A DNA stretch of 33,074 nt from Verrucomicrobiota bacterium (GCA_030747575.1 JASLKI010000311.1:1-33074), one strand, 5' to 3'; positions 7,167 through 19,955 are shown, numbered from the stretch's first letter. The notes: generated by a model not told the origin, from the sequence alone. Translations and numbers: made by a program.

Positions 7167-7526
7167 TAGTCTGGTGTCTATTAGAGAACTGCCGGGTAAA
7201 GCAGTGACATTGCTGTCAATCCATCGTGTACAGAGGAGAAACTCTGTGGATGTTGACTTGAAGTGACCAATTAATTCGCCTCCATGCTCCAATGCGGTCC
7301 GTAATAAATCCGTAATCGGCAGATACGAATTTATTCAAGGAGTTCGATTTTGAACCTCACCAACTCCACGCGCTCAATTCATGAACAATGGATTTGGATT
7401 TCGGGAATTTTCGGGCAAAAGAGGGCTAGTTGAATCTATAATCTTCTTTATTCAATGCGTTAAGAGTTGACATAAGTGTTTGATTAGAAAAAAATACTTT
7501 TTTAAGTAACTTATCCTTAAAAATAA

Positions 7527-8051
7527 ATGAAAAATATACTAATAATATTGCTAGCTATAACAGCATTTACCATTTCAGTAAATGCTCAGTCAGAAACACT
7601 TCCTGAAGTAAAGACAAGTGATGCCTTCAAACAATTGCAAGGCTTTATTGGTAAATGGAAAGGGAAAATAACAAAATATAATGGCGAAGTCGAGAGCATA
7701 GAGACTGAGTTTAGTTTAATGACTAATGGTAGTGTGATTGTAGAACGATTCACTGAAGGCGGCAAGGAGGTCTTTACAATGTATCATGATAAAAACGGTC
7801 AATTGACTGCTACCCACTATTGCTCACTAGGGAATGTTCCGTCGTTTACTCTAAGTAAAAAAGACAAGTATAATTTGTCATTCGCTTTCGATCCTCTTTG
7901 TGGATTAAAGGTTGGGAAAGACAAATTTCTAAACTCATTGGTTTGGAATTATGATCCTAAAAAACCAAATAAACTTCAGTCATATAGCAAGCTCATTGAT
8001 ACTGATAAAAGTATACTTTCGAACACTAAAAAGTTAACTAGAGTAAAGTAA
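7527..8051 (+). CDS. Secreted hypothetical protein in the AT-rich block
   Basis: 174-aa ORF with signal peptide MKNILIILLAITAFTISVNAQ, very AT-rich codon usage and no SD-like sequence upstream. An intrinsic terminator follows. Family not recognised with confidence (motif THYCSLGNVPSF). Confidence 0.75.
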   Translation: MKNILIILLAITAFTISVNAQSETLPEVKTSDAFKQLQGFIGKWKGKITKYNGEVESIETEFSLMTNGSVIVERFTEGGKEVFTMYHDKNGQLTATHYCSLGNVPSFTLSKKDKYNLSFAFDPLCGLKVGKDKFLNSLVWNYDPKKPNKLQSYSKLIDTDKSILSNTKKLTRVK

Positions 8052-8075
8052 AAATATTAGAAAATACCTTTTTCA

Positions 8076-8104
8076 AGCACCATTTACTAATGGTGCTTTT
8101 TTTT
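8076..8104 (+). terminator. Rho-independent terminator of the 7527..8051 gene
   Basis: Stem agcaccat (8076-8083) pairs with atggtgct (8090-8097). A run of seven T follows (8098-8104). Confidence 0.85.
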
Positions 8105-8110
8105 CATTAT

Positions 8111-9007
8111 ATGAATAAATTAATTATCTTTTGCATGCTGGTTACTATTAGCTGTAAAGAACATAAAACTAGCTATGAACACCCGAATAATTCTGCTACA
8201 AATAAATTAGAGTTTATTACAAAAGGTATAGTTAAAGAATTCTTAGATAACGGCATGATTAAAATTGAACATGAGGAGATCCCGAATTACATGCCATCGA
8301 TGACTATGCCATTTAATATAAAAAACAAGGCAGAAGCCGATGGAATTAAAATTGGAAATGAAATAAGTTTTAAATTTAATGTTGGAGAAGATTACAGCTG
8401 GATTGATGAAATAGTAATATTAAATACAGCTCCAGAAAATGAAAACAAAGAATACAGAACAGGCACAGTTAGCGAAAAAAGATATTTAACAATTGGGGAC
8501 GTGATTGGAAACTATGATTTTATCAATCATAAAAATGAAAAAGTAAGCCTGAGTCATTTCAATGATAAGGTTCTTGTTATCACGTTTATTTATACTCGAT
8601 GCCCTGTGCCTGACTTTTGCCCACAATTATCACTAAAATTTAAATCCGCACTTGAAAGTCTTAGCACAGAATTACCAAACCAAAATGCTTATCATTTCCT
8701 GTCTATTACCTTTGACCCTGAACACGATACGCCTAATGTACTAAACAATTATGCAAAACTTTATGAAGGCGACAATCACAATAACTGGAGTTTCCTAACT
8801 TCCAGTACGGAAGAAATACAAAAATTCACTGACGAAATTGGATTAGTAATAAGTCGTGAAAAAGAGAGTATATTAGACTGGGATCATAACCTTCGAACAC
8901 TAGTTACTAATCAATCAGGTATGATCAAAACTATTCTTATTGGAAACCTGTGGAGTGCCGATGAGTTGGTTAATGAAATAAAAGAATTACTGGCAGGCCA
9001 TAGATGA
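8111..9007 (+). CDS. SCO1/SenC-family copper chaperone / thiol-disulfide protein with an N-terminal CusF-like copper-binding domain; probable lipoprotein
   Basis: Thioredoxin-fold motif FIYTRCPVPDFCP, ..SITFDPEHDTP.., DHNLRTLV. N-terminal IEHEEIPNYMPSMTMPFNI Met-rich copper-site-like motif. Start moved to ATG 8111 (MNKLIIFCMLVTISC) because the listed start at 8090 lies inside the upstream terminator. Confidence 0.8.
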   Translation: MNKLIIFCMLVTISCKEHKTSYEHPNNSATNKLEFITKGIVKEFLDNGMIKIEHEEIPNYMPSMTMPFNIKNKAEADGIKIGNEISFKFNVGEDYSWIDEIVILNTAPENENKEYRTGTVSEKRYLTIGDVIGNYDFINHKNEKVSLSHFNDKVLVITFIYTRCPVPDFCPQLSLKFKSALESLSTELPNQNAYHFLSITFDPEHDTPNVLNNYAKLYEGDNHNNWSFLTSSTEEIQKFTDEIGLVISREKESILDWDHNLRTLVTNQSGMIKTILIGNLWSADELVNEIKELLAGHR

Positions 9008-9039
9008 ATGTTTGGATGCGGAAAGGGGGCTGGCAACAG

Positions 9040-9117
9040 CTACTTCCCTTCAGCTTTCAATTCTTCACCCGTCTTGCCGCCGTGTTTGCGGAGGAGGTCT
9101 TCGGTTTCTTTTCTCAT
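9040..9117 (-). pseudogene. Tail-only fragment (25 codons: MRKETEDLLRKHGGKTGEELKAEGK)
   Basis: Near-exact copy of the family tail element with stop TAG at 9040-9042. No leader or cargo is attached. It sits between the AT-rich plus-strand block and the minus-strand array. Confidence 0.6.
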
Positions 9118-9141
9118 AGGTCTGAGTTGGTCATAATATCG

Positions 9142-9489
9142 TCAATCCCACCACCAGTAGAGATAACCCTCGGGAGCAAGCTGCATCAGTCCGTAGCACA
9201 CTGGTAACGACACTAAATGCACCATGAAATAGACAACCAGATGTCGCCAGCGAGAGACAAGTAGACATACCAGAATAATTGCAGGCACTACAAAAATGGT
9301 AAAAAGCAACAAACACGTAATGTAAGCACCTTGAATTTGATCATGCATAAGCAACGCCGGAGGAAACCCATGCGTTCCAATACTCTCGGGCCACCCATCT
9401 AAACTTTTGTGCATGTGAATTGCTAAGGAGTAAAATAGTAATAGTGCCAACAAGTAAGGCAGGATTGAGATAGCAATACCTGCTTTCAT
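9142..9489 (-). CDS. Small integral membrane protein (hypothetical)
   Basis: 115-aa ORF with 3-4 hydrophobic helices. Its ATG overlaps the upstream stop as ATGA (9486-9489), directly after a tail element. Confidence 0.6.
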   Translation of the reverse strand: MKAGIAISILPYLLALLLFYSLAIHMHKSLDGWPESIGTHGFPPALLMHDQIQGAYITCLLLFTIFVVPAIILVCLLVSRWRHLVVYFMVHLVSLPVCYGLMQLAPEGYLYWWWD

Positions 9490-9935
9490 TTCCCTTCAGC
9501 TTTTAAGCCTTCTCCAAGAACTCGTAGATTCTTTTCCACCGCGCTGGTTTCACCCTTTCTTCTTTTAGCAATTATGCCATCAATACTCTGAACAGTTGAA
9601 TCCATATCTATAATTTCAGCACTATTACTGTTATCACCAAGAATTATTGCAAGATTGCTATTTAGATTTTGGGTGTAGTAACCAAATTCTTGTTTAACTA
9701 TTTTCCCATTTATATTTCCTTTGAATAAGCCGCCACCTTCTTGTTTTGATTTAAAACTAAATACTTTAAACACACCCCCATCTAGTCGATCAATTAGCAA
9801 TTGCTGTCCTACTACTGTTATTTCGATCTCCTGCCAAACATTTGTTCCGCTGTTTGCTATTGTTATTTTATTTTTTGAACACCCAAGCAGCACCGCGGTT
9901 GCGATTGTTGTGAGTAGGAGGTGTTTCATTTTCAT
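9486..9935 (-). CDS. Small lipoprotein (hypothetical) with family leader, AT-rich core and degenerate family tail
   Basis: N-terminus MK-MKHLLLTTIATAVLLGCS (lipobox); the second ATG at 9929 is the canonical leader start. C-terminus ..GEGLKAEGK-stop. Confidence 0.75.
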   Translation of the reverse strand: MKMKHLLLTTIATAVLLGCSKNKITIANSGTNVWQEIEITVVGQQLLIDRLDGGVFKVFSFKSKQEGGGLFKGNINGKIVKQEFGYYTQNLNSNLAIILGDNSNSAEIIDMDSTVQSIDGIIAKRRKGETSAVEKNLRVLGEGLKAEGK

Positions 9936-9993
9936 TCAACTTTCAATTCTTCACCCGTCTTGCCGCCGTGCTTGCGGAGGAGGTCGGCGATTT
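9884..9993 (-). repeat. Tail-leader junction element (tail of 9932..10489 plus leader of 9486..9935)
   Basis: Minus-strand sense ..ctcctccgcaagcacggcggcaagacgggtgaagaattgaaagttgaATGAaaATGaaacacctcctactcacaacaatcgca.. Confidence 0.9.
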
Positions 9994-10489
9994 CATTGAG
10001 TGAACGCGAAAGCGCTGGAGAAAAAGCATTCTGGAATTTAATTAAAGCATTCGCCGAATCTAGCGGTGTACCGAAAATATCATCCTTCGCATTCACATCC
10101 GCACCTTTGGTGATTAGCAGTTCAGCCATTTCGGGACGAGGGGGATCAATCGCCCACACTAGGGGTGTTTCCTTAGATGGTCCATTCACATTCACATCCG
10201 CACCTTCGGAGATTAGCAGTTCAGCGATTTCCTTATGGCCTTCTCGAACCGCCCAATGCAATGGAGTTCTTCTAGCTATATCCGTCATATTCACATCCCC
10301 GCCAGCATCCAAGTACTGTTTGACCAATTCAATATTTCCGTCAATGGCAGCGTCGTGAATTGAGATGTCTGGCACTTTGGCTGCCGGCGGTTCAGCTGGT
10401 TTCGCTTCTGGTTCAGGAGCCGACTGCTGCGTTTTACCACACCCCACCAGAAGCACGGCTGCGATTGTTGTGAGTAGGAGGTGTTTCAT
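9932..10489 (-). CDS. Ankyrin-repeat lipoprotein (canonical leader + tail family member)
   Basis: MKHLLLTTIAAVLLVGCGK, then ANK repeats (TPLHWAVREGHKEIAELLISEGADVN..), ending IADLLRKHGGKTGEELKVE-stop. ATGA overlap with the next gene at 9932-9935. Confidence 0.9.
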   Translation of the reverse strand: MKHLLLTTIAAVLLVGCGKTQQSAPEPEAKPAEPPAAKVPDISIHDAAIDGNIELVKQYLDAGGDVNMTDIARRTPLHWAVREGHKEIAELLISEGADVNVNGPSKETPLVWAIDPPRPEMAELLITKGADVNAKDDIFGTPLDSANALIKFQNAFSPALSRSLNEIADLLRKHGGKTGEELKVE

Positions 10490-10528
10490 TTCTCTTCAGC
10501 TTTCAATTCTTCACCCGCCTTGCCGCAA
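10441..10528 (-). repeat. Tail remnant (untranslated) fused to the leader of 9932..10489
   Basis: Minus-strand sense ttgcggcaaggcgggtgaagaattgaaagctgaagagaaATGAaacacctcctactc.. The remnant lies after the stop of the PQQ-like gene and lacks the LLRKH part. Confidence 0.85.
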
Positions 10529-10542
10529 GTCATCGAGTTCTA

Positions 10543-11835
10543 CTACTGCGCCTCGATGCGATACAAATGCCCGCCCGTGCGCATGATGAAAGCATCACCA
10601 TCGACGGCGGGCGTCGCCATGAACGGCTGCCTAGCCAGAGCATTACTGGCCATGACCTGAAGTTTGCGAGTTGGCCGAATGACTGTGGTAAGGCCTTCCT
10701 CGTTAAACAGGTAAATCCGCCCCTCTGCGTAGATGGGCGACGCCGAGTAAACGCCCTTCAGACGTTCCTTCCAGACGACCTCGCCGGTCTTAGCCTCAAG
10801 ACAGCTCGCGATACCGCCACGGTTCACGACAAACAACAAATCGCCTACCAGCAACGGAGAACAACGTTGTGGCATGCTGCGGAACGACTTCCATTCAATA
10901 TGCGTGTCGGTTACATCGCCTTTGCCGTTGAGCCGAATGGCCCACAGTTCCGGCCGGTCCCGATCCACCGTGGCAAACACCAACCCGTGGCCGGATACAG
11001 GGCGCGGTGCCACCGACCAGCCTCGATGCCGTACGTACCACAGTTCCTTGCCTGTTTTCGGATCGTAGGCGTAAAGACCGCGGCCAGCAGGGCTTACGAG
11101 TTGCTGGCCTTGACCTCTCGGCACCAGCGCCGGCATACAATAGGCCTTTCGGTGATGAACGGGAAACTTGGAATACTCGAGCGATCGCAGCGTTTTCCAA
11201 GCCGTCTTACCAGTGGTCTTGTCGAGAGCGATGATGTATTGCACATCCCGACCATCCACGTGAACCACCGCCTTGTCCCCGACGAGTGTTGGCGAACTAG
11301 CTGGCCCGGCTCCCGCCTCATGGTCGCAATTCAAATCACGTCGCTTCCACAACACATCTCCGGTTTCAGTGTCTAGGCAAGCCGTGCCATAAGTGCCGAA
11401 GTGCAGTATTACCCTACGTTCATCTATCACGGGCGTGGGAGTTGCGTAGGTGTTGTCTTTGGTGATCCTTATTGGTTTAGCCACATCGAACAAATGCAGA
11501 TCATAAACTATCTTGCCGGTTACCTTATCTAGACAGACCGCGAACAATTTCCGCCCGTCAGCTGTGGCAGTGGTAAGCCAAATTTGCCTCCCCCAAATCA
11601 CCGGGGATGACCAGCCCCGATCGTGGATAGGGGTTTTCCAAGTGACGTTTTCTGCCTCCGACCACTTCAACAGAAGATTAGTTGATGTCGTATGACCGTC
11701 ACCGCTTGGACCTCGAAATTGCCACCAATTGTGCTCAGCTGAAGCCAAACCAATCACAAGAAAAAAAAATGCAAAACAAACGATGGACTTGTCTTTAATA
11801 TGCGTTTTTTTAAGGAATTTAATCTCTTTTTTCAC
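10543..11835 (-). CDS. PQQ-like (BamB-like) beta-propeller repeat protein, secreted
   Basis: HNWWQFRGPSGDGH.., repeated ..P.V.....Y....DG.L.A.D..TGK..W propeller motifs. Own signal peptide KSIVCFAFFFLVIGLASA. Start set at GTG 11835; the listed start at 11886 runs into the orphan-leader region in another frame, so the start is uncertain. Confidence 0.8.
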   Translation of the reverse strand: MKKEIKFLKKTHIKDKSIVCFAFFFLVIGLASAEHNWWQFRGPSGDGHTTSTNLLLKWSEAENVTWKTPIHDRGWSSPVIWGRQIWLTTATADGRKLFAVCLDKVTGKIVYDLHLFDVAKPIRITKDNTYATPTPVIDERRVILHFGTYGTACLDTETGDVLWKRRDLNCDHEAGAGPASSPTLVGDKAVVHVDGRDVQYIIALDKTTGKTAWKTLRSLEYSKFPVHHRKAYCMPALVPRGQGQQLVSPAGRGLYAYDPKTGKELWYVRHRGWSVAPRPVSGHGLVFATVDRDRPELWAIRLNGKGDVTDTHIEWKSFRSMPQRCSPLLVGDLLFVVNRGGIASCLEAKTGEVVWKERLKGVYSASPIYAEGRIYLFNEEGLTTVIRPTRKLQVMASNALARQPFMATPAVDGDAFIMRTGGHLYRIEAQ

Positions 11836-11933
11836 TAAACTGCAACTTGATGAGTTGAGATGTCTGGCGACTGCGACTCTCCACACCCCGCCAGCACCAC
11901 GGCTGCGATTGTTGTGAGTAGGAGGTGTTTCAT
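11835..11933 (-). pseudogene. Orphan leader plus ankyrin N-terminal fragment (MKHLLLTTIAAVVLAGCGESQSPDISTHQVAV-stop)
   Basis: Exact 30-nt leader copy starting at ATG 11933. SPDISTHQ resembles the VPDISIHDAA start of the ankyrin protein at 9932..10489. It ends at TAG 11835-11837, which overlaps the GTG of the PQQ-like ORF (TAGTG). Confidence 0.6.
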
Positions 11934-12005
11934 TTCAATTCTGCTGTTAATTAGCGGTGCTGGCAGTGCCACCCAAGTGTGCCATGAGAAGATGGAAAAT
12001 AACGG

Positions 12006-12296
12006 CTAATACACTTGGCTTTGATAAAGAAACTCTGGAGGTGACTCAAGGAAGTCGGAGACAAACTCTTGGAGCAAGCCGCCTTCCTCTCTCCAAGCCA
12101 CATACTTTTTATGTGCTTCAATGGAAGCCCACTCTCCATAAACCATCATCGTGGAGTCATCTGGACTCCCCGCGACACGAATGGAATCACAACCTTCAAA
12201 GGAGGCAGTGTCAGGAATATGTTTTTGCATAAATGCTACAGCTTCCTCGTACTTACCCGGTTGAATCTTCATTTTTACAATAGCAATTTTAGACAT
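12006..12296 (-). CDS. Antibiotic-biosynthesis-monooxygenase (ABM) domain protein
   Basis: 96-aa ORF of typical ABM length, with the pattern ..FEGC....V......MMVYGEWASIEAHKKY.. Confidence 0.8.
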   Translation of the reverse strand: MSKIAIVKMKIQPGKYEEAVAFMQKHIPDTASFEGCDSIRVAGSPDDSTMMVYGEWASIEAHKKYVAWREEGGLLQEFVSDFLESPPEFLYQSQVY

Positions 12297-12318
12297 AAAG
12301 CGAGAACATCAGAGTTGC

Positions 12319-12405
12319 GCCTAACCGTCAAGCGGTCAGAAAAAAGAGTCGGTCTAACAGTTGCCTCCGAACAACAACCCTGTGGCGTTCAAGTGGTTGT
12401 TTAGC
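12319..12405 (-). repeat. Intergenic repeat, copy A (family A/B/C), with GTTAGAC and GTTAGGC motifs
   Basis: Plus-strand taacagttgcctccgaacaacaaccctgtggcgttcaagtggt aligns with 16157-16197 (taacggttgccgccgaac---aaccctacggcgttcaagcggt). Minus-strand sense reads GCTAAAC..(40 nt)..GTTAGAC, and a second GTTAGGC lies 27 nt downstream. Confidence 0.7.
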
Positions 12406-12503
12406 TGATGGGAGCTTTGACTACTCGATATGGTTCTATTACTGGTAATTCCAGCTCTTTTCCATCCCCAATTTTTACTATGGAAATAGAGTACGTTTTC
12501 GGT

Positions 12504-13949
12504 TTATCTCTGGACCGGAAGTCGCGTGTACGGGCTGGAAATATAGGTGTTATACGTGCGGCCTGATCGAACGATTCTTTTGCGGTGATTACTAAAAAAG
12601 TCTATATGCTTATGTCCCGGTTTAATGGCTAAAGTCACACTCCAGGAATTCTGCGCGGGGTTCATTTTCATTGGGGCGGCCTGTTCCTTCGGAAAAAGTT
12701 CAGCGATATATGCCGCACTACCATCAGGACCCCGGTCATACATCCACCATATGCGCCCACTCTCAGCCTTTGCCCCCTTGGGGAAAGTCACCGTAATCTG
12801 AATCTTATCCTTATCCAATTTGGCTTGTACCGCTGGAGGAGACAATAACCCTTCTCCCCCAAAAAAGTGATGGAGTAAGAATACCGATTTATTCTGTTCA
12901 TCGCGTTCAGCCGCTGGATGAGGTTCACGGATCCCATGACCTGAATTAGCTTTAAGGTAAATTGGAATTTGGGGGTAATGTTTCCCGCCCCATGCCAGAT
13001 CAAACGCCACAAAGTCATGGGTGCCCGGGTGAAAAAACAAATCGACACTCCGCTCCTTTAGAGTCTTCAGATGTCGAGAAACAAAAATGTGATCGGCCAT
13101 CTCTCCCGCAATCTTCTGCAAATCCTCCCACTTCTTCCCCGCAGCCAGAGCCTGGCGGTTATAGACCGGCCCAAAGGTGCCGCCCAAAAAGAAGTGATTC
13201 ATAATGCGCTCGGTGTTTACAGATTCACCGCGTGCCCTCAGTTTGACCGCATAAGTCTCATTCGCCCGGCGCAAATCTGACCACACCTTGGGATCACACA
13301 GGCGCAGGGGTGAATCCCAAATAGGGGACACACTCGCATGCAGGGCACTCAATCGCTTGTCTTCAATCAGGGTCACCGAAGGTGAGGCACCATTCTTAGA
13401 GCCGCCTGAGGCAGCGACCTTACCCTTTTCAAAATGATCCTTCTCTGCGTAAGCCGTCGTGATTGCTCGCATTAAGGTGGCCGGCCAGCCCCAGTACTGG
13501 ATGGAATAATGAGGATTGAGTGTCTCAACAAAACGCCGGTCGGCCAATCGACCCAGTTCACCCTGACCGGATACTTGCAATACCTGCACCACCGTTTGCA
13601 CCAGACCGACGCCTCCTTCAAGTAAGGTTCGATCCACCCCGCGAGGCTGCAAATCCTTTTGGAACTGGCCCGGATTGTGACCGCCAGTCAGGTGGAAACC
13701 CTTGGCCTTGCGGTTGGTCGGCACAACCATCCGCACCGGCACGCGGTATTCCTTTCCCGGCAGTAGCTCCCCCACCCGAATGGTGACCAATTTCTGTCGC
13801 GTGGACACTTCTCCCCTCACCACATGCCAGTCCTTGAGCACCTTCACCTCTAGGGTACTCGCGTCCAGCATTTCGGCCATATTAAAAAGGGGAGCTGACT
13901 GCAGAGGCAATAGCGCAACAAAAAAAACGATTAAGAACAGGTATTTCAT
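12504..13949 (-). CDS. Secreted hypothetical protein, possibly an alpha/beta-hydrolase-like PhoPQ-activated-pathogenicity-related family member
   Basis: 481-aa ORF with signal peptide MKYLFLIVFFVALLPLQSA. The block SGGSKNGASPSVTLIEDKRLSALHASVSPIWD resembles the GASKRGW..D.RV..i.P motif of that family, recalled from memory with low certainty. Its ATG is part of an ATGA directly after a tail remnant. Confidence 0.7.
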   Translation of the reverse strand: MKYLFLIVFFVALLPLQSAPLFNMAEMLDASTLEVKVLKDWHVVRGEVSTRQKLVTIRVGELLPGKEYRVPVRMVVPTNRKAKGFHLTGGHNPGQFQKDLQPRGVDRTLLEGGVGLVQTVVQVLQVSGQGELGRLADRRFVETLNPHYSIQYWGWPATLMRAITTAYAEKDHFEKGKVAASGGSKNGASPSVTLIEDKRLSALHASVSPIWDSPLRLCDPKVWSDLRRANETYAVKLRARGESVNTERIMNHFFLGGTFGPVYNRQALAAGKKWEDLQKIAGEMADHIFVSRHLKTLKERSVDLFFHPGTHDFVAFDLAWGGKHYPQIPIYLKANSGHGIREPHPAAERDEQNKSVFLLHHFFGGEGLLSPPAVQAKLDKDKIQITVTFPKGAKAESGRIWWMYDRGPDGSAAYIAELFPKEQAAPMKMNPAQNSWSVTLAIKPGHKHIDFFSNHRKRIVRSGRTYNTYISSPYTRLPVQR

Positions 13950-13976
13950 TTCCCTTCAGCTTTCAATTCTACACCC
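13946..13976 (-). repeat. 3' half of a tail element (untranslated)
   Basis: tcatttcccttcagctttcaattctacaccc has one mismatch to the canonical tail. It lies after the stop (13978-13980) of the ankyrin gene and supplies the ATGA start of the 12504..13949 gene. Confidence 0.9.
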
Positions 13977-13977
13977 A

Positions 13978-14847
13978 CTACTCAACCACCCTCACACGGT
14001 AGAACCATTGCGGGGGATCGTGATCTCTCTCTTCATCAAACCGAACCGAGGCGCCAGTCCCGGTGTAGGTCTTGATCACTTCCCAGTTTAGCAGATCAAG
14101 TGAATCCTGAACCTCGTAGACCTTTCCCTCCTTCGCATCAAAGCTGAATGCAAAGCGATTGTGCTGTATCAAGCGAGGCGTCAGTTGATGTTTGCGGAGG
14201 AGGTCGGCGATTTGCCTCTTTGCGACTTTGGCATCAGGCGAGTCCCATTCATATACCAATTCGGCAGTATCTAGCGGAGTTCGTCCAAAACCATCTTTTA
14301 CATTCACATTCGCACCATTCGCGATTAGCAGTTCAACGATTTCCTCGTGGCCTATACCAGCCGCCACATGCAATGGAGTCCCGTAATATCCACTCTCAGT
14401 ATTTAAATCCGCGCCTTTGATTATAAGCAATTCGACGATTTCCTTGTGACCTTCAAGGGCTGCATCATGCAAACTGGACTTGCCTGTAGAATCCTTTGAA
14501 TTCACATCGCTGCCATTTGAAATAAGTAGTTCGACGATTTCCCTGTGACCTTGCCTGGCTGCCGAATGTAAAGGCGTCCACCCTCCACCTCCCAACATGG
14601 TAACAGTCCTTGCATGCAAATCCGCACCTGCGGCAATCAACAACTCGACGATTTCCCCGTGACCTCCTTCAGCCGCACCATGCAAAGGAGTCGATCCACC
14701 TTCACTCTTCGCGTTCACATCCACGCCTCTGTCCAATTCCGCTTGGACGCCAGCAATGTCACCGCTCTTAGCAGCATAGTGAATCGGGTCGGCGAAGGCA
14801 GTTCTCACCAGCACTACGGCTGCGATTGTTGTGAGTAGTAGTTTCAT
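13978..14847 (-). CDS. Ankyrin-repeat protein with family leader and an extra C-terminal ~70-aa beta-rich module ending WFYRVRVVE
   Basis: Start moved to ATG 14847 (MKLLLTTIAAVVLV, a leader variant). Five to six ANK repeats (TPLHGAAEGGHGEIVELLIAAGADL..). IADLLRKH is followed by QLTPRLIQ..FYRVRVVE instead of GGKTGEELKAEGK. Confidence 0.85.
   Translation of the reverse strand: MKLLLTTIAAVVLVRTAFADPIHYAAKSGDIAGVQAELDRGVDVNAKSEGGSTPLHGAAEGGHGEIVELLIAAGADLHARTVTMLGGGGWTPLHSAARQGHREIVELLISNGSDVNSKDSTGKSSLHDAALEGHKEIVELLIIKGADLNTESGYYGTPLHVAAGIGHEEIVELLIANGANVNVKDGFGRTPLDTAELVYEWDSPDAKVAKRQIADLLRKHQLTPRLIQHNRFAFSFDAKEGKVYEVQDSLDLLNWEVIKTYTGTGASVRFDEERDHDPPQWFYRVRVVE
14192..14213 (-). repeat. 5' half of the same split tail element
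   Basis: ttgcggaggaggtcggcgattt is identical to 9972-9993. Confidence 0.85.
14806..14847 (-). repeat. Leader element copy (variant)
   Basis: Minus-strand sense atgaaactactactcacaacaatcgcagccgtagtgctggtg. Confidence 0.85.
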
Positions 14848-14905
14848 AGTCCTGACGTGCGTTAAATAAAATGGGGACCCTGAACCGGTATCGGCGGATT
14901 TAACT

Positions 14906-15097
14906 TTACCAACCAAAAACTGTGCCGACGATGATATAGACGGTTGATACTATAAAAATAATCGTCACGCACACCAGCATCACAGGTGCCTTCCGAGGTT
15001 TATAGCCTTCATTGACTGCTCCACATTTCGGACATTTTTCTAAATTAGTAGATACACCTCCACCGCAATCCTTACATTCTAAGATTAGTGTTTTCAT
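14906..15097 (-). CDS. Small zinc-ribbon protein with a C-terminal TM helix (hypothetical)
   Basis: CKDCGG..(9 aa)..CPKCG two-CxxC zinc ribbon, then the hydrophobic stretch VMLVCVTIIFIVSTVYIIVGTVF. AT-rich. Its ATG is part of an ATGA after an untranslated tail copy. Confidence 0.6.
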   Translation of the reverse strand: MKTLILECKDCGGGVSTNLEKCPKCGAVNEGYKPRKAPVMLVCVTIIFIVSTVYIIVGTVFGW

Positions 15098-15157
15098 CTC
15101 CCTTCAACTTTCAATTCTTCACCCGTCTTGCCGCCGTGTTTGCGGAGGAGGTTGGCG
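15094..15157 (-). repeat. Complete tail element, untranslated (out of frame and downstream of the esterase stop)
   Basis: Would read ANLLRKHGGKTGEELKVEGR-stop. The esterase stop (15158-15160) precedes it, and the frame offset (15158-15094=64) is not a multiple of 3. Confidence 0.9.
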
Positions 15158-16111
15158 CTACTTTTTCAAGTGGTGTATCAGGAAAGCCACATCGTCTTCG
15201 AACGGCAGTTGAGCTTGTGGAAATTTGAGGAATACATTCACGCCTTCCCGTCGCAGTTTCTTTTCCATGAAGATGCCAAAATTGACGTGGTGAATAGACC
15301 AGCCCCGGGCACGTTTGGGATCGCTGGGGATCGGATCGTCCGGATTCATGCCATAGCTCATGAAGGTGGGCGGGTCATCCGGGGTGATGTGATTGATGAC
15401 GGAGATTTCGTTGAGAAGGGCCCGCCGTTCGACAAAGGACAGGTCTTCCCTGCCCCCTTTACCGTGGAACTCTCTTTTGTAGCCCGGGATATTCTCGACC
15501 CACCAATTCATGTCCAGGGTCGATTGTCCGCCCCTGAGGGCCACCGCTTTGAGACGCGATGATTCCCGTGAGACCGGATCGGTGCTTTTCGGATTCGCAA
15601 AATCATTGCCCCAGGCGAGGTAGGCAACAAGCTGGGCGCCCGCCGATCCTCCATAGGCGGCAATGCAGTTTTTATCGATGCCCCAATCCTCCGCCTTGCT
15701 GCGGATGAACTGCAAGGCGCGAACGCAGTCTTCATGCGCAGCCGGAAAATCGGCATGCTTAAGAAAGCGGTACTCTACAGACGCATGGTGAATGCCGGCA
15801 TCGAGATATTGCCGGATTGCCTTGCCATTGACTTTGTCGTGCGAGCCTCCCTTGAAGCCGCCTCCGTGAATATAGACTATCAGGGGAGCTGGATCATCCA
15901 CGTTAGCCTTCCGGAAATCGATCACTTGGTTGGGGTGATCGCCGTAGGAAACATTTTCGTATGTAATCGACGGAGAGGGGGGCTTTTGCTGCGCTTGAAC
16001 AGTGAGGCCAGAGGTGTCTGCGATCAAAAATGCGGAGGAAAATAAAAGCGTTGAATAGAGGTGTTTTATTTGGAAGTCGGCAGCGATTGTTGTGAGTAGC
16101 ACTGATTTCAT
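15158..16111 (-). CDS. Alpha/beta-hydrolase esterase (HGGG-type carboxylesterase/lipase-like), secreted
   Basis: Oxyanion motif YIHGGGFKGG and nucleophile elbow GGSAGA (GxSxG). The N-terminus is a leader-derived MKSVLLTTIAA fused upstream of a second signal-like segment IKHLYSTLLFSSAFLIA. Confidence 0.85.
   Translation of the reverse strand: MKSVLLTTIAADFQIKHLYSTLLFSSAFLIADTSGLTVQAQQKPPSPSITYENVSYGDHPNQVIDFRKANVDDPAPLIVYIHGGGFKGGSHDKVNGKAIRQYLDAGIHHASVEYRFLKHADFPAAHEDCVRALQFIRSKAEDWGIDKNCIAAYGGSAGAQLVAYLAWGNDFANPKSTDPVSRESSRLKAVALRGGQSTLDMNWWVENIPGYKREFHGKGGREDLSFVERRALLNEISVINHITPDDPPTFMSYGMNPDDPIPSDPKRARGWSIHHVNFGIFMEKKLRREGVNVFLKFPQAQLPFEDDVAFLIHHLKK
16079..16111 (-). repeat. Leader element copy (variant)
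   Basis: Minus-strand sense atgaaatcagtgctactcacaacaatcgctgcc. Confidence 0.8.
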
Positions 16112-16142
16112 AGCGAGGGAACCGTCACCCCGATAAACTCTG

Positions 16143-16213
16143 TTTTCAAGGCGTTTTAACGGTTGCCGCCGAACAACCCTACGGCGTTCAAGCGGTGGAG
16201 TGGGTTGGTCTAG
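16143..16213 (-). repeat. Intergenic repeat, copy B (full length)
   Basis: Plus-strand ttttcaaggcgttttaacggttgccgccgaacaaccctacggcgttcaagcggtggagtgggttggtcta. Contains an imperfect hairpin, minus-strand sense CCGC-TT-GAAC..GTTC-G-GCGG. Confidence 0.8.
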
Positions 16214-16227
16214 TTGTCTTTCGAAGC

Positions 16228-16533
16228 CTAAGCGTCTTCCAGAATTTTCAGGGAGACGTCTTCTACCATGCCTTCTACCTTCGATTTGTACTCTAACATA
16301 TGCGGCGCAGTGAAATGAGCTTCAAGGTGAAGTAATGATTCCCATTTCTCAATAACCGTTACGACGTTTGCATTCGTTTCCTGGATGGGAATGTCGGTTT
16401 GGAAGTCCACCGTGGCGGAATATTCGATACACCCCTCTTCCTCCAGCACCTTGGGAACGTTCGTCTTGAATATTTCAATGAAGGCGTCGCGTTCGGAAGC
16501 TTCTACTGAAATGGATGCTATTACGTTTATCAT
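16228..16533 (-). CDS. Antibiotic-biosynthesis-monooxygenase (ABM) domain protein
   Basis: 101-aa ORF, ..EEGCIEY....D......VVTVIEKWESLLHLEAHFTAPHM... Strong AGGAGG lies 5 nt upstream of the ATG. Confidence 0.85.
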   Translation of the reverse strand: MINVIASISVEASERDAFIEIFKTNVPKVLEEEGCIEYSATVDFQTDIPIQETNANVVTVIEKWESLLHLEAHFTAPHMLEYKSKVEGMVEDVSLKILEDA

Positions 16534-16538
16534 TTTTA

Positions 16539-16544
16539 CCTCCT
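16539..16544 (-). promoter_or_regulatory. Shine-Dalgarno sequence of the ABM gene
   Basis: Plus-strand cctcct equals AGGAGG, 5 nt upstream of ATG 16533. Confidence 0.6.
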
Positions 16545-16584
16545 AAGCCTGTAAGAGAGTGAACACTCGCGGTCGAGTTGCCAT

Positions 16585-16626
16585 TTTTCAAGGCGTTTTA
16601 ACTGTTGCCGCCGAGGTGGGTTGGCT
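16585..16626 (-). repeat. Intergenic repeat, copy C (copy B with an internal ~27-nt deletion)
   Basis: ttttcaaggcgttttaactgttgccgccga has 1 mismatch over 30 nt to copy B. It then continues ggtgggttggcta, matching the distal end of copy B. Confidence 0.8.
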
Positions 16627-16662
16627 ACTTCCCTTCAGCTTTCAATTCTTCACCCGTCTTGC
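16625..16662 (-). repeat. Tail element copy (3' part only, translated in frame with the sulfatase)
   Basis: ctacttcccttcagctttcaattcttcacccgtcttgc is identical to 9040-9077. Confidence 0.9.
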
Positions 16663-18040
16663 GCGCTGCGCGTTTGCCACGTTTTCTCGGCGGCTCATTA
16701 ATCCACCATTCTGATGGCCCTTCTTTTTCAACCTCATCGTGTACCTTCAATAGCGCGGTTTTCATGAAGGCAAGCTTTTCGGGCATCTTGGACGCCAAAT
16801 CCTTTTCCTCCTTCCAATCCTCCTCGATCTTATAGAGCTGAAATTTCTCGAGGGCCCTATCCCCCACAATCTTCCACTCGCCAATACGCAGAGCCACGTG
16901 ATTGTCTGCCGGCGCCAAGTGGTTACGCCAGTAAAGCGGCACAGTCCGTTCCACCGGTTTACCGGCCAAAGCCGGCCGCATGTCCACCCCGTCAATCACC
17001 CGATCCTTGGGCAGGTCCGCACCAACAATGGCCAGTATGGTGGAGAAAAGGTCGGACCCAATCACCGGCACACTGCTCGTGGTCCCAGGCTTAATGTGGT
17101 TGGGCCAACGGGCAATACCCGGCACGCGAATACCTCCTTCATGACTCCAGCGCTTTCGTCCACGCAGGCCTCCAGTCGAACCGCGTGTACGGCCTTTGGT
17201 CCCCGCCCCCTCAGGTCCGTTATCCGAGGTAAAAAAGACGAAGGTATCCTCGGTCAAGCTCTGTTGATCGAGTTCTTTCATTAGCAAACCAAAGGCATGG
17301 TCCAACTGGGTGACATTCCCGTGGTGCTGCCGGATTCCCTCATCATCAATATCCGCGTAAGGCTTCATGAACTCAGGCGCCGACTCAATAGGTAGATGCG
17401 GTTCATGCGTCCAGACAGTGATAAAGAAAGGTTTGGACTTGTCCCTTTCCTTGCGGAGCCAGTTAATGGCTTCTTCAGCGGCAATGACTGCAGAAGCGCC
17501 TTTGATAACTCCAACGGCCTTGCCATTGCGTACGAAGTTTTTCGGATTAATATGATTGGGCGAAGCATTGTTTTGGGTTGCCAACCACCAGTCATAGCCG
17601 TGGCTATTGGGTTGGGGTTGACGCGGATCATTAAAGAACCCGTTCAGGTGCCACTTGCCGGCATGGCATGTCGTGTAGCCCTTTGATTTCAAGACCTCGG
17701 GAATGGTAATCTCACTGGTACGCAGGTGCACCTGGTGGCCCGAAGGAATCCAACGCCACACCCCGTTGCGGTAGGGGGTACGGCCTGTGAGAATGGAGGA
17801 ACGCGAAGGCGAACAAACCCCGCACGCCGCGTAACACTGGGTAAGCCGCACGCCTTCTTTTGCGAACTGGTCCAGGTTCGGCGTTTTAATCAAGGGATGT
17901 TCCTGAACACCCAAATCGCCCCAACCGAGGTCGTCGGTGAGAAAGATCACAAAATTAGGCGACTTCTCCTTGGCATTCAATTCAAGCGCAAACCCCACCA
18001 GCACCACGGCTGCGATTGTTGTTAGTAGGAGGTGTTTCAT
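16625..18040 (-). CDS. Arylsulfatase (formylglycine-dependent S1 sulfatase family) carrying family leader and short family tail
   Basis: FLTDDLGWGDLG and the CGVCSPSRSSILTGR (CxPxR) signature. N-terminus MKHLLLTTIAAVVLVG. C-terminus ..RKTGEELKAEGK-stop. Confidence 0.9.
   Translation of the reverse strand: MKHLLLTTIAAVVLVGFALELNAKEKSPNFVIFLTDDLGWGDLGVQEHPLIKTPNLDQFAKEGVRLTQCYAACGVCSPSRSSILTGRTPYRNGVWRWIPSGHQVHLRTSEITIPEVLKSKGYTTCHAGKWHLNGFFNDPRQPQPNSHGYDWWLATQNNASPNHINPKNFVRNGKAVGVIKGASAVIAAEEAINWLRKERDKSKPFFITVWTHEPHLPIESAPEFMKPYADIDDEGIRQHHGNVTQLDHAFGLLMKELDQQSLTEDTFVFFTSDNGPEGAGTKGRTRGSTGGLRGRKRWSHEGGIRVPGIARWPNHIKPGTTSSVPVIGSDLFSTILAIVGADLPKDRVIDGVDMRPALAGKPVERTVPLYWRNHLAPADNHVALRIGEWKIVGDRALEKFQLYKIEEDWKEEKDLASKMPEKLAFMKTALLKVHDEVEKEGPSEWWINEPPRKRGKRAARKTGEELKAEGK
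17993..18040 (-). repeat. Leader element copy
   Basis: Minus-strand sense atgaaacacctcctactaacaacaatcgcagccgtggtgctggtgggg, with one change relative to the 30-nt core. Confidence 0.9.
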
Positions 18041-18166
18041 GTCAGCGAAAGCTCAGCTTAATTGCGTATTATTTGCAATAGTTTTGAATGTGCATATGAA
18101 AATCTTCATGCAATACAAAAAAGGGCAGCATGCTCACGCTTAGTGGTCAAGCACCGTTGATTTGCG

Positions 18167-18194
18167 TTGACGATTTATTCAAAGTTGCTATGAA
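18167..18194 (+). promoter_or_regulatory. Possible sigma70-like promoter for the 18210..19118 gene
   Basis: TTGACG (18167-18172), a 16-nt spacer, then TATGAA (18189-18194). The ATG follows at 18210. Pattern match only. Confidence 0.3.
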
Positions 18195-18209
18195 CTTGTT
18201 CGGGTTTTT

Positions 18210-19118
18210 ATGAAGAAGCAATTACTGACAGTAATCATTACTAGTATGTTCTTTGGGTTGTCGGTGTTTGGCGCAAAGAACAAGGTCTTGAAGATTGGGA
18301 CGCGTCCAGAAAGTGTGACAAAGGGGTTCGGTGGTAAGTACTATGTCACCGTCATGAACTCGGCGGACACTGAAGGGGACGCCGTGATTAAAGTCCTTGA
18401 TGGCGACAAGTCGCGCGTATTCGCTAAGGGTATGGATGAGCCAAAGGGTATTGCGTTCACTGGTAAATATCTTGTCACTGCCGACCAGACCAAGGTTTTG
18501 AAAATTGACCGCAAGGGGAAGGTGTCGGTCTTAGTCGATAAAAAGAATTTTACGCGTAACGTGAGTTTCCTCAACGACGTCGCCTCATCGTCGGATCGTA
18601 AGAGTATCTTCGTCACTGATATGGGTGCCATTAGCATGATGTTCGATCCAGACAAGGATCGTACGCTTTGGCCCTTGGACAGCAAGCAAGCGAAAGAACT
18701 AACGGCGGAGGGTTGTGTTTATCAGATTACGCTCGACGGAAAGATTACCGATGCAGTTGCTCCGGGAAACAGCTCACTTCCGGGGCCAAATGGTGTCGGG
18801 CGAGCTGGGAAGAATGGGTTGCTTTTATGTGATTTTTTTACCGGCAATATTTTGCGTAAAACTGGAAAAGGGCAGTTAAAGGTAATTGCAAAGGGACTGC
18901 GAGGTGCCGACGCTATCAATACTGGTGGCAAGGGCGTCATTTATGTTTCGAGCTGGACGCAAGGAAAAGTTTGGAAACTAACTGAAAACGGGAAAAAGAG
19001 TGAAGTTATTCTAGAAGACCTATTGTCTGCTGCTGATTTTTTTGTCGATCTGAAGGCCAAGAAGTTGATCGTGCCGGATATGCTAGCAGGCACGCTAATA
19101 TTTGTTGATATCCAGTAG
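18210..19118 (+). CDS. Secreted beta-propeller protein (SMP-30/gluconolactonase/LRE-like or NHL-like)
   Basis: 302-aa ORF with signal peptide MKKQLLTVIITSMFFGLSVFG. Repeated blade-like segments (..PKGIAFTGKYLVTAD.., ..IFVTDMG.., ..PNGVG...GLLLCDF.., ..GVIYVSSW..). Lower GC than its neighbours. Function uncertain. Confidence 0.75.
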   Translation: MKKQLLTVIITSMFFGLSVFGAKNKVLKIGTRPESVTKGFGGKYYVTVMNSADTEGDAVIKVLDGDKSRVFAKGMDEPKGIAFTGKYLVTADQTKVLKIDRKGKVSVLVDKKNFTRNVSFLNDVASSSDRKSIFVTDMGAISMMFDPDKDRTLWPLDSKQAKELTAEGCVYQITLDGKITDAVAPGNSSLPGPNGVGRAGKNGLLLCDFFTGNILRKTGKGQLKVIAKGLRGADAINTGGKGVIYVSSWTQGKVWKLTENGKKSEVILEDLLSAADFFVDLKAKKLIVPDMLAGTLIFVDIQ

Positions 19119-19165
19119 GCAAGGCTGCTGTTAAACGCGCCGAAATTAAGATCATTGTAGCGCAT

Positions 19166-19303
19166 TCATTTCCCTTCAGCTTTCAATTCTTCACTAGTCT
19201 TGGCTCCGTGTTTGCGGAGGAGGTTGGCGGTTGCCAATACAGCCAACGGCGCGCGGTGGTCTTGATAAGTAGCATAATCCAGCCGGGTTTCGCCAACATT
19301 GCC
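19166..19303 (-). pseudogene. Ankyrin C-terminal fragment with a tail element
   Basis: ..GETRLDYATYQDHRAPLAVLATANLLRKHGAKTSEELKAEGK-stop parallels the last ANK repeat plus tail of 9932..10489. The N-terminal part of the listed 72-aa ORF overlaps a terminator hairpin and is probably not coding. Confidence 0.6.
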
Positions 19304-19331: not shown

Positions 19332-19369
19332 AAAAAGCCCACAGTGGTCAACTGTGGGCCTTGTTTTTT
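19332..19369. terminator. Bidirectional intrinsic terminator
   Basis: Perfect 9-bp stem gcccacagt (19337-19345) / actgtgggc (19351-19359) with a 5-nt loop. Flanked by aaaaa upstream and cttgtttttt downstream. Lies 34 nt past the stop of the minus-strand gene 19393..19632. Confidence 0.8.
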
Positions 19370-19392: not shown

Positions 19393-19632
19393 TTAAGTAG
19401 GATTTTGGTCTTCAGCCTTCTTTTGGTCGGTGCACTCCTTATCACCACAGTCGGGTTTTGCGCCTTCATCGCAAGTGGCTTTCTCGTCGCACTCCTCTTT
19501 GGAAGCTGAACATTCCTCTTTGGAACCTGAACATTCGGATTCGGCTTTGGCCGAGGTGCTGCTGACGTAGTAGAATCCCGCACCCGTGACCGAAACCGCC
19601 GCAATTGCTATAAATGTAATTAGAGCCTTCAT
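19393..19632 (-). CDS. Small membrane-anchored or secreted Cys/Glu/Lys-rich protein (hypothetical)
   Basis: 79-aa ORF. N-terminal hydrophobic MKALITFIAIAAVSVTGAGFYYV, then ESECSGSKEECSASKEECDEKATCDEGAKPDCGDKECTD (7 Cys). A terminator follows. Confidence 0.65.
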   Translation of the reverse strand: MKALITFIAIAAVSVTGAGFYYVSSTSAKAESECSGSKEECSASKEECDEKATCDEGAKPDCGDKECTDQKKAEDQNPT

Positions 19633-19810
19633 CGCCGGAAAACTATCGTCTGCTATGTGTATTGCAAGACTATAAAGTGGCTACTGTGGGCCACATTTTT
19701 CGGCCTATTAGCGGTAATGTCAGCGCGCCTGGACAAGCACGTTGAGTTTTGTTCTGGCCAACCTCAGAATAGGCACAAAAAGAGGCACCACTAGATTTCG
19801 GTATAATGTT

Positions 19811-19841
19811 TTTCACTGTTAATAATTTTAAAACAGTGAAA
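19811..19841. other. Perfect 10-bp inverted repeat just downstream of the tRNA-Leu 3' end
   Basis: tttcactgtt (19811-19820) and aacagtgaaa (19832-19841) around an 11-nt A/T-only loop. Confidence 0.7.
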
Positions 19842-19868
19842 TTGGGCTTAGTTTGTCACCTAAACAGA

Positions 19869-19955
19869 TGGTGCCCGCGGCAAGAGTTGAACTTGCACCC
19901 CATTGCTGGGACTTGAACCTGAATCAAGCGCGTCTACCAATTCCGCCACGCGGGC
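19869..19955 (-). tRNA. tRNA-Leu (anticodon CAG), CCA encoded
   Basis: Folded by hand. 7-bp acceptor stem GCCCGCG/CGCGGGC; D arm GCG-GAAUUGGUAGA-CGC; anticodon stem CUUGA/UCAAG with loop UUCAGGU; long variable arm CCCAGCAAUGGG; T arm GCAAG-UUCAACU-CUUGC; discriminator A plus CCA. Total 87 nt. Confidence 0.93.

Follow-up and report, generated by a model that had tools for sequence, protein, structure and literature searches.

We analysed a stretch of 33,074 nucleotides (nt) from a Verrucomicrobiota bacterium (GCA_030747575.1, JASLKI010000311.1), hereafter the window, which holds an array of secreted-protein genes interspersed with copies of two short coding elements, a leader and a tail. Coordinates, marked w where contigs are compared, count along the whole stretch, and L-numbers designate retrieved comparison contigs or loci. 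We show that leader and tail correspond to the 5′ and 3′ ends of a greatly expanded family of small predicted ankyrin lipoproteins in uncultured marine Verrucomicrobia. We consider it likely that homologous recombination and gene conversion at these conserved ends drive a cassette-like turnover of genes and graft the leader onto foreign genes.

Leader and tail elements

Six leader-like copies, with ATGs at 18040, 16111, 14847, 11933, 10489 and 9929, and eight tail cores, with stops at 19166, 16625, 15094, 13946, 10486, 9932, 9486 and 9040, were located, all of them on the minus strand. They are confined to 9040–19303, with no copy on the plus strand or in the rest of the window, and shuffled windows used as a chance control gave 0 leader and 0.03 tail matches. 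The 30 initial nt are the same in three leaders, the tail core gaagaattgaaag is the same in six tails, and a 9-nt trace of a tail (11934–11942) stands directly before leader 11933. These copies, positions and identities agree with the initial annotation, made from the sequence without database searches. The same is true of the GC content of the genes lying between the elements (the cargo), which was said to differ sharply and measured 0.34–0.54, against 0.57–0.62 in the core flank.

The leader encodes a putative lipoprotein signal, MKHLLLTTIAAVVLVGCG, in whose translations the parts of a signal peptide can be read: a basic MKH, a hydrophobic LLLTTIAAVVLV and the lipobox LVGC, which fits the pattern [LVI][ASTVI][GAS]C. 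NCBIfam returned weak, generic lipoprotein-signal matches for the leader and no curated model for leader or tail. The tail peptide ends in ..ADLLRKHGGKTGEELKAEGK, and its stop overlaps the next ATG (ATGA). In most copies the TGA overlaps the ATG of whatever follows, whether the next leader or a gene beginning with MKYLF.., MKTLIL.. or MKAGIA... In the first 36 nt of the leader and over the final ~55 nt of the tail, conservation at third codon positions equals that at the other two, as expected from the earlier description of ends that stay nearly identical even at third positions; selection at the peptide level alone is therefore insufficient. The invariant leader nt 7–14 (for example w18027–18034, minus strand) read CACCTCCT, the reverse complement of which is a perfect Shine-Dalgarno (SD) sequence, and which we take to be identical to the anti-SD end of 16S rRNA. 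This SD-complementary sequence may be a reason for nucleotide-level constraint on the leader; no fold signal was found.

Gene content of the array

On its high-coordinate side the array is bordered by a tRNA-Leu(CAG) gene (19869–19955, minus strand; ARAGORN and Rfam), the 3′ end of which separates the conserved core on the right from a variable island on the left. Next to it lies a remnant of a tyrosine-integrase gene (19735–19863, minus), made of the upstream region and the first codons; the window matches the intact gene of L124 only to about w19735. A gene for a 79-amino-acid (aa), Cys-rich small secreted or membrane protein (19393–19632, minus) lies within a 3.07-kb segment that is missing from haplotype H2, described below. 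A strong hairpin resembling an intrinsic terminator, with a 12-bp stem and a T run, stands 3′ of this gene (19334–19362) and is the only strong one of the region. A scan from 18040 down to 9040 found nothing comparably strong, the other matches having 5–9-bp stems in numbers at or below those of shuffles. This is consistent with operon-like transcription of the array, whose genes are presumably co-transcribed.

An orphan tail ending in ..ANLLRKHGAKTSEELKAEGK before its stop (19166–19229, minus), with no ankyrin gene upstream, is followed by a gene in the opposite orientation for an SGL/arylesterase-like beta-propeller (18210–19118, plus; weak Pfam matches). A promoter-like upstream module, called class C (18041–18120, minus), then precedes the S1 sulfatase gene (16625–18040, minus; Pfam Sulfatase); the same module stands before leaders with differing cargo in L001, L010, L050 and L103. 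The ~45 initial nt of the sulfatase gene are the canonical leader (17988–18040), and its final ~38 nt (16625–16662) are a tail relic, in frame in the window. Within the ABM-domain gene region that comes next (16143–16614, minus), the ABM gene (16228–16533; Pfam ABM) sits between direct copies of a spacer module (16585–16614 and 16143–16172), each preceded by CCAACCCAC.

The gene for a BD-FAE/alpha-beta esterase (15158–16111, minus; Pfam) starts with an 11-codon leader fragment, MKSVLLTTIAA, which runs into a second, degenerate leader-like stretch, IKHLYSTLLFSS.. (both within w16040–16111). The ATG of this second piece is now ATA (ATAAAACACCTCTATTCAACG, read as IKHLYST..), and the presence of two leader pieces suggests repeated grafting of leaders onto one gene. 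Directly 3′ of the esterase stop is an orphan tail (15094–15157, minus), whose TGA overlaps the ATG of a 63-aa gene (14906–15097). The ankyrin protein that follows (13978–14847, minus; Pfam ankyrin repeats in the open reading frame (ORF) 13978–14916) has the leader variant MKLLLTTIAAVVLVRTAFA, an internal tail-like IADLLRKH at 14189–14213 and an extra C-terminal domain ending in ..FYRVRVVE. An ankyrin subfamily (w13978–14200; L051 1975–2859; L018; L086) shares a non-lipoprotein leader variant, ..VATTAFADPIH, and its reading frame continues past the tail (..LRKHGGKTGAELKA..) into a conserved C-terminal domain of ~70 aa with the end FYRV(R/K)VVE.

A 27-nt tail relic 3′ of the ankyrin stop (13946–13972, minus) overlaps, by its TGA, the ATG of a 481-aa gene (12504–13949, minus), which has its own signal and no family match; exact-protein look-ups gave no recorded match for the sulfatase or the 481-aa protein. 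In the second ABM-domain gene region (12006–12397, minus), a spacer module (12373–12397) again stands before the ABM gene (12006–12296). This recurrent module (also at w16143–16196 and 16585–16614, and at L051 4446–4526) reads ..ACC(A/G)CTTGAACGCC..GGGTTGTT..GGCAAC.GTTAAAACGCCTTGAAAA.. and is found ahead of the two ABM genes, the leader of the esterase and the L051 sulfatase. In about nine loci a shorter form, ACCAACCCACTCCACCACTTGAACGC, separates a ..GGCAACTAA tail variant from the leader.

The 5′-end relic of an ankyrin gene (11838–11942, minus) combines the 9-nt tail trace with a full leader and ~40 nt (..GESQSPDISTHQVAV before the stop), so that leader 11933 is open for 31 codons. A gene for a PQQ_2/BamB-like beta-propeller (10543–11886, minus; Pfam), with its own start and signal, is inserted between this leader relic and a degenerate, untranslated tail relic 3′ of the propeller stop (10486–10526, minus), the TGA of which overlaps the ATG of the next leader. 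That leader belongs to ANK185 (9932–10489, minus; Pfam), an intact family member of 185 aa with leader, three ankyrin repeats and tail. The remaining members are an AT-rich small lipoprotein (9486–9935, minus; GC 0.34; no Pfam family) with a leader and a degenerate in-frame tail, ..NLRVLGEGLKAEGK; a 115-aa membrane protein (9142–9489, minus), whose ATG overlaps the TGA of the preceding tail; and an orphan tail relic (9040–9108, minus), with which the array ends on its low-coordinate side.

The bracketing of cargo between leader and tail, proposed in the initial annotation, holds in frame for only three genes, namely ANK185, the small lipoprotein and the sulfatase. The other units are relics, orphan tails or genes with their own starts. 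The ABM, 481-aa, 63-aa and 115-aa genes have neither element, some of them beginning at the ATGA that closes a tail relic, and the propeller, ABM, 481-aa and small genes start from their own start codons. Tails 10486, 13946 and 15094 sit 3′ of the stop of the upstream gene, and tails 19166 and 9040 are orphans without a gene body.

Strain haplotypes and breakpoints

At least 10 independent assemblies from different samples (including L118–L122 and L130–L134) are collinear with w1–w22165 at 99.2–99.8% identity, across every junction. They rule out a chimeric assembly and so dispel an early worry that the array was an artefact of its repeats.

At least five alternative haplotypes of the same population break within a leader or tail or at its edge, at about w16677, w10440, w9042 and w9107. 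Haplotype H2 (L127 and L123) is without w16678–19747 (3.07 kb), that is, the 79-aa gene, the orphan tail, the SGL-like gene, the promoter module and the sulfatase. It instead carries an ankyrin 3′ remnant, whose tail enters the same spacer and ABM gene, and the left breakpoint lies inside the tail. In L135, ANK185 (otherwise 98.8% identical) is preceded by another ankyrin gene, and both the tail variant and the leader allele in front of it differ from those of the window; the break is at the 3′ end of the leader. After tail 9040, L136 has a leader-ankyrin gene that replaces a low-GC segment with SCO1/CusF, the break falling at the tail end. In L139 and L141, intact and differing ankyrin genes lie upstream of tail 9040, and the break is at the 5′ edge of the tail. 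A sixth haplotype, L124, differs only at the integrase remnant.

One of two alternatives offered at first for leader and tail was that they act as homology arms, with a comparison between strains for presence or absence of cargo units as the check. Run on same-species contigs of ~99% identity, this comparison supported turnover of cargo at the elements, in the form of replacements and indels with breakpoints in or at tail or leader.

Leader grafting and probable module swaps across species

The sulfatase ortholog in L051 begins with MKPILVSIVAAVLLLGFALELNA.. (MKPILVSIVAAVLLLG), whereas that of the window begins with MKHLLLTTIAAVVLVGFALELNA... The upstream module and nt 7–45 differ between the two, and from GGGGTTTGCG on they are ~90% identical in nt. 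The comparison shows that the leader was replaced on the window sulfatase, where it is predicted to serve as the export signal.

Joins of this kind recur. The segment w17992–19134, comprising the SGL-like gene, the promoter-like module and the leader, is 95% identical to contig 16 (L010) of the metagenome-assembled genome (MAG) FRAM bin38; divergence starts inside the leader, which in FRAM bin38 runs into an ankyrin gene. L013 has the same propeller 3′ end, degenerate tail relic and leader as the window, and then different cargo, and L012 has the same small-lipoprotein cargo behind another upstream module. Several classes of upstream module recur with different cargo. The homology-arm proposal thus extends across species, where the same cargo or upstream module is joined to different partners within the leader. 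In one upstream class, D (L008, L017 and L067, from three MAGs), a shared ~75 nt with a GGTGTGACC direct repeat stands before a truncated leader. We rejected the possibility that a mobile element uses the class D leader relic as its att site, no integrase being present nearby in L067.

Cassettes are shared between the window organism and FRAM bin38, NIOZ-UU28, MAG 15 and SZUA-1142; the loci retrieved for this comparison have no core genes in common. Leader and tail alleles are common to several MAG species and are not genome-specific. Genome-specific alleles, the signature of conversion within a genome, were looked for and not seen.

An ankyrin-lipoprotein family dispersed in marine Verrucomicrobia

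A search of species-representative genomes for the exact 29-nt leader gave 103 stretches, among which are 16 MAG species carrying the label Verrucomicrobia. These 16 come from the deep or polar ocean, oxygen-minimum zones and similar sites, and FRAM bin38 carries the leader on seven contigs of 43–179 kb. Exact copies of the 40-nt tail-ATGA-leader junction were present in more than 120 metagenome contigs among the matches listed, and the spacing between junctions is often 370–450 nt, which equals one small ankyrin gene.

We then took a census of the elements in 532 kb retrieved around leader matches. It comprises 168 leaders and 135 tails; a tail stands directly upstream of 62 leaders, and 58% of the tails close in an ATGA that begins a downstream gene. 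Of the leader ORFs, 94 reach at least 80 aa; 56 of these encode ankyrin proteins and 9 sulfatases, the other 29 falling into 24 clusters that include EEP nucleases/phosphatases, GDPD, GH99 and several alpha/beta hydrolases (Pfam). The consensus tail translates as ..TEIADLLRKHGGKTGEELKAEGK up to the stop, that is, the last ankyrin helix and a short hydrophilic extension. We conclude from the cargo of the leader ORFs and the translation of the consensus tail that the two elements represent the ends of one expanded, head-to-tail ankyrin-lipoprotein family. Because its genes lie head to tail with an ATGA overlap, the conserved unit is the junction, made of the last ~60 nt of one gene and the first ~50 nt of the next.

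This single origin of both elements, the many relics and the tRNA-Leu integrase island are missing from the initial annotation. It had named, as the finding that would speak against a special system, motifs dispersed over the genome with ordinary synonymous divergence. The motifs are indeed dispersed, and their divergence is not of the ordinary kind, third positions being equally conserved.

Many leader contigs of 500–750 nt are binned to unrelated phyla (L001, L005, L019, L061, L068, L078, L081, L098, L102 and others). About 10 such mis-binned contigs are held by the Acidimicrobiales genome ETNP14_MAG_1, and L001 is 99.5% identical to the window. Among 2.9 million viral contigs, a single one carries the leader and a single one the tail, which argues against a phage-linked spread. 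In the literature, the leader and tail peptide strings were not found in any paper searched, and topic searches gave analogues only.

Relics and out-of-frame tails

Among closed leader ORFs of the census set, 41% do not reach 50 aa, and upstream of 43% of the tails fewer than 50 codons are open. An independent metagenome set of 137 junctions contained 34 truncated leaders and 28 orphan tails. Tail relics keep the 3′ end and have variable 5′ cut points; leader relics keep the 5′ end, with breaks spread over nt 30–48. This pattern is the expected residue of interrupted or replaced ankyrin gene bodies and argues against a fixed crossover site. A fixed crossover point in the leader was rejected on the scatter of these breaks.

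The reading frame of the tail is often lost. On contig 16 of FRAM bin38, three unrelated ORFs enter a tail relic out of frame and end in ..TRRQDG or ..TRRQDE, and the sulfatase ortholog of L051 (90% identical in nt) ends in ..RKRGKRAAARRVKN where that of the window ends in ..RKRGKRAARKTGEELKAEGK, owing to a 1-nt indel. The tail GGKTGEELKAEGK is hydrophilic, lacks the features of known C-terminal sorting tags, which have a transmembrane helix and basic residues after a motif (PEP-CTERM, LPXTG, GlyGly-CTERM) or form a domain of ~80 aa (the C-terminal domain of the type IX secretion system), and has no NCBIfam or Pfam match. Since it is often untranslated or out of frame, as in the L051 sulfatase ortholog, it is not a general sorting tag. 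The other alternative offered at first, a shared lipoprotein signal with a C-terminal sorting tag, is thus right for the leader, which is a lipoprotein-type signal reused by unrelated secreted enzymes, and wrong for the tail.

The small-lipoprotein family keeps both ends, with ..NLRVLGEELKAEGK (..GEELKAEGK) in frame, down to 49% identity. Its homologues are found only in Verrucomicrobiota or marine metagenomes, which leaves a foreign (Bacteroidota) donor for the AT-rich small lipoprotein unsupported.

A decayed integrative island at tRNA-Leu

Relatives at 77–84% nt identity are syntenic with the right flank of the window (TIM-barrel, GFO/IDH, AddAB-like, prepilin-like and MscS genes). This synteny stops at the tRNA-Leu 3′ end, with homology ending at w19863 or w19763, and left of the tRNA gene the relatives carry other genes, among them a Phage_integrase gene in L105. 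In L124, which is of the same species (99.6%), an intact integrase lies at tRNA-Leu (Pfam Phage_integrase, 1.9e-15); the window keeps a remnant of ~65–130 nt, with about the first ~65 nt of the gene. The end of synteny at the tRNA, the integrases of L105 and L124 and the remnant in the window place the array in a decayed tRNA-Leu integrative island. An attL/attR test by short-word BLAST of the tRNA region against the window gave only chance matches of 9–14 nt, and the far end may lie outside the window.

A low-GC segment (7300–9030; GC 0.29–0.35 against 0.58 in the core) adjoins the last tail relic. Its plus-strand genes, at 7527–8051 and 8090–9007, encode a Bacteroidota-style signal-peptide protein (weak DUF6705 match) and a CusF-SCO1/SenC fusion. 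The segment looks like a foreign insertion that ends the array, since L136 has its leader-ankyrin gene there. At 3789–7166 lies a gene for a 1125-aa secreted protein with five ~200-aa internal repeats (64–70% nt self-identity) and no meaningful Pfam family, adjoining a gene for an FG-GAP/ASPIC protein. Both genes are absent at this position in the relatives at 77–84%, so the variable region may reach past the array.

Probable recombination at conserved gene ends and its alternatives

Strains of one population break at the elements, the elements are dispersed and leave relics, and attC-like structure is lacking. We think that these observations are best, and probably correctly, explained by homologous recombination and gene conversion at the conserved ends of the ankyrin family. 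The array would lie in a strain-variable island by tRNA-Leu that formerly had a tyrosine integrase. There, ankyrin bodies would have been repeatedly replaced or interrupted by unrelated genes, leaving leader relics anchored at the 5′ end and tail relics anchored at the 3′ end, and illegitimate insertions and deletions within redundant ankyrin genes may contribute. Some incoming genes would have been fused in frame to the leader and gained an export signal, with selection keeping such fusions for secreted cargo. The near-identical junction copies would be substrates for ordinary homologous recombination and gene conversion, which would swap cargo and promoter-like modules between loci, strains and probably species, and would also hold the divergence of the ends below that of the bodies. 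The tail is probably retained in its 3′ part as the ribosome-binding site (RBS) region and overlapping start of the downstream gene. We infer RecA-type recombination or conversion as the mechanism and translational coupling as the role of the tail end.

Several points weigh against this explanation. The recombination events are deduced from end states, with no intermediates or rates seen, and the 3.07-kb indel has its other breakpoint within the integrase remnant, outside any element. The copies were ascertained by nucleotide similarity, which inflates their apparent conservation. The sharing of alleles is unlike simple concerted evolution within a genome and needs either transfer between species or direct selection on the nucleotide sequence. 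Finally, the last ten codons of the tail could have a function at the protein level or as an RBS/start region, given their in-frame retention in the small-lipoprotein family.

More tentatively, and with less than even confidence, the tail-ATGA-leader junction could be seen as serving at once as a portable adaptor and as a homology arm, an integrase-free analogue of the integron for the secretome. A gene landing between junctions would gain an RBS, a start codon, an export signal and an operon context, and could then pass, by plain homologous recombination, from one locus, strain or species of marine Verrucomicrobia to another. Such an adaptor would explain why identical alleles occur across species and why cassettes of 90–95% identity stand in non-syntenic contexts.

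Function alone could also hold the ends constant: the leader would be a preferred lipoprotein/Sec signal and the tail a device for translational coupling and an ankyrin C-terminal cap, both maintained by selection at the protein, mRNA or RBS level, with recombination incidental and no commoner than at other repeats. The lipobox LVGC, the use of the leader on many secreted hydrolases, the 58% of tails ending in an ATGA that starts a downstream gene, relics that keep only the 3′ part of the tail, the conservation of both ends at the protein level in the small-lipoprotein family and the sharing of alleles across species all fit this explanation. We nevertheless judge it unlikely, because selection on the peptide leaves unexplained the near-invariant synonymous positions, such as a rare-looking CTA Leu codon, because abundant untranslated or out-of-frame relics still keep the sequence, and because at least five strain haplotypes break in or at the edges of the elements.

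The co-oriented, tightly packed and heterogeneous genes, unrelated to one another and separated by a repeat of ~110 nt, resemble a dedicated integron-like cassette system in which the junction would be the site of an unrecognised, site-specific recombinase; the direct spacer repeats around the ABM gene and the tyrosine integrase at the island edge in sibling strains point the same way. Such a system is improbable on several counts. The integrase of the window is a short remnant only, placed at the tRNA as in ordinary islands, and Pfam detected no recombinase or transposase ORF in the window. The consensus junction folded no better than its shuffles (z 0.09 as DNA and −0.04 as RNA), so that no hairpin or attC-like symmetry is apparent; no inverted repeats were found at the junctions, and Rfam matched the tRNA only in the window and nothing at the junction. 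Breakpoints are scattered over ~20 nt of the leader and ~50 nt of the tail, and the element is the coding sequence of a protein family.

High copy number, dispersal and fragments in non-coding positions might also be expected of a small non-autonomous mobile element, of the kind of miniature inverted-repeat transposable elements (MITEs) or repetitive extragenic palindromic (REP) sequences, that happened to encode a stop, an RBS, a start and a signal peptide. This is very improbable, as there are no terminal inverted repeats, target-site duplications or fixed length, both halves are continuous with ankyrin bodies in most copies, and the haplotypes include no pair of empty and filled sites. A metagenome assembly joined or collapsed at the repeats can be dismissed for practical purposes: although many public MAG contigs end at the repeats and short repeat contigs are mis-binned to unrelated phyla, the collinear assemblies described above span the array.

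Recombination at the family ends would give abundant uncultured ocean bacteria a route by which they may diversify their secreted and surface proteins, the ends of a multi-copy family serving both as recombination tracts and as adaptors, ready for use, for the expression and export of unrelated genes such as those of sulfatases, esterases, nucleases and glycosidases. What stands out is a single leader, identical in its nucleotides, that recurs in different gene families and species, together with turnover at the elements between strains. If exchange between species is true, this would be a homology-based counterpart of cassette capture by integrons and a clear case of signal-peptide shuffling in bacteria. 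On the practical side, metagenome assemblies break up at the repeats, and Verrucomicrobial contigs end up in MAGs of unrelated phyla.

Comparison with known systems

tRNA-linked integrative islands, or additive flexible genomic islands, are recognised by their position at the 3′ end of a tRNA gene, an integrase and a gene content that varies between strains. The array resembles them in lying at a tRNA 3′ end, in having an integrase that is intact or decayed depending on the strain, in its mixed and atypical GC content and in its strain-level variation of content. It differs in that turnover occurs at a family-specific coding repeat and not at att sites or insertion sequence elements, and the flanking direct repeat of the tRNA end was not found here.

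Surface-protein families with conserved ends include the erp/UHB lipoproteins of Borrelia, vsp/vlp of Mycoplasma, with a conserved 5′ untranslated region and signal peptide, bab/sab of Helicobacter and the VSG cassettes of trypanosomes. They share with the array a promoter or leader and a 3′ end conserved at the nucleotide level, a variable middle and the reassortment of modules by recombination at the ends. Their members, however, are homologous antigen variants for immune evasion, often with a single expression site, whereas here unrelated enzymes and binding proteins fill the middle, and nothing points to an expression-site logic. Unrelated enzyme cargo and several promoter-like modules argue against membership in the cassette systems of antigenic variation, in which a single expressed locus receives sequence by unidirectional conversion from homologous, promoterless donor cassettes. 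In the orphan-cassette arrays of polymorphic toxins, Rhs and CdiA, fragments keep a short conserved coding piece that recombines to display cargo. That piece is N-terminal to toxin domains and has immunity genes alongside, whereas no toxin or immunity content is present here.

Integrons consist of IntI, a tyrosine recombinase with an extra domain, attI, the promoter Pc and attC hairpins formed from imperfect inverted repeats. The array is like them in its compact, co-oriented genes, diverse and unrelated, in its repeated element of ~100 nt and in cassettes that vary between strains. It is unlike them in having no IntI, attI or attC structure and no fixed exchange points, and in a repeat that is translated and supplies stop, RBS, start and signal peptide. 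Background on integron gene-cassette arrays is available (PMC3856429).

The closest described case found is the lpl cluster of S. aureus. In the lpl paralogs of the nuSa-alpha island, a conserved nucleotide tract is the site of homologous recombination, and the evolutionary unit reaches from the 3′ part of one ORF across the junction into the 5′ part of the following one (Tsuru and Kobayashi 2008, PMC2568036). Both cases concern tandem lipoprotein genes borne on an island, with strain rearrangements at a conserved tract, and the hallmark of the lpl type, a shared tract to which rearrangement breakpoints map, is also found in our array. In lpl, however, the tract is central, the ends are variable and all members are homologous, whereas here the junction is conserved, the interiors belong to unrelated families, and copies are dispersed genome-wide and across species.

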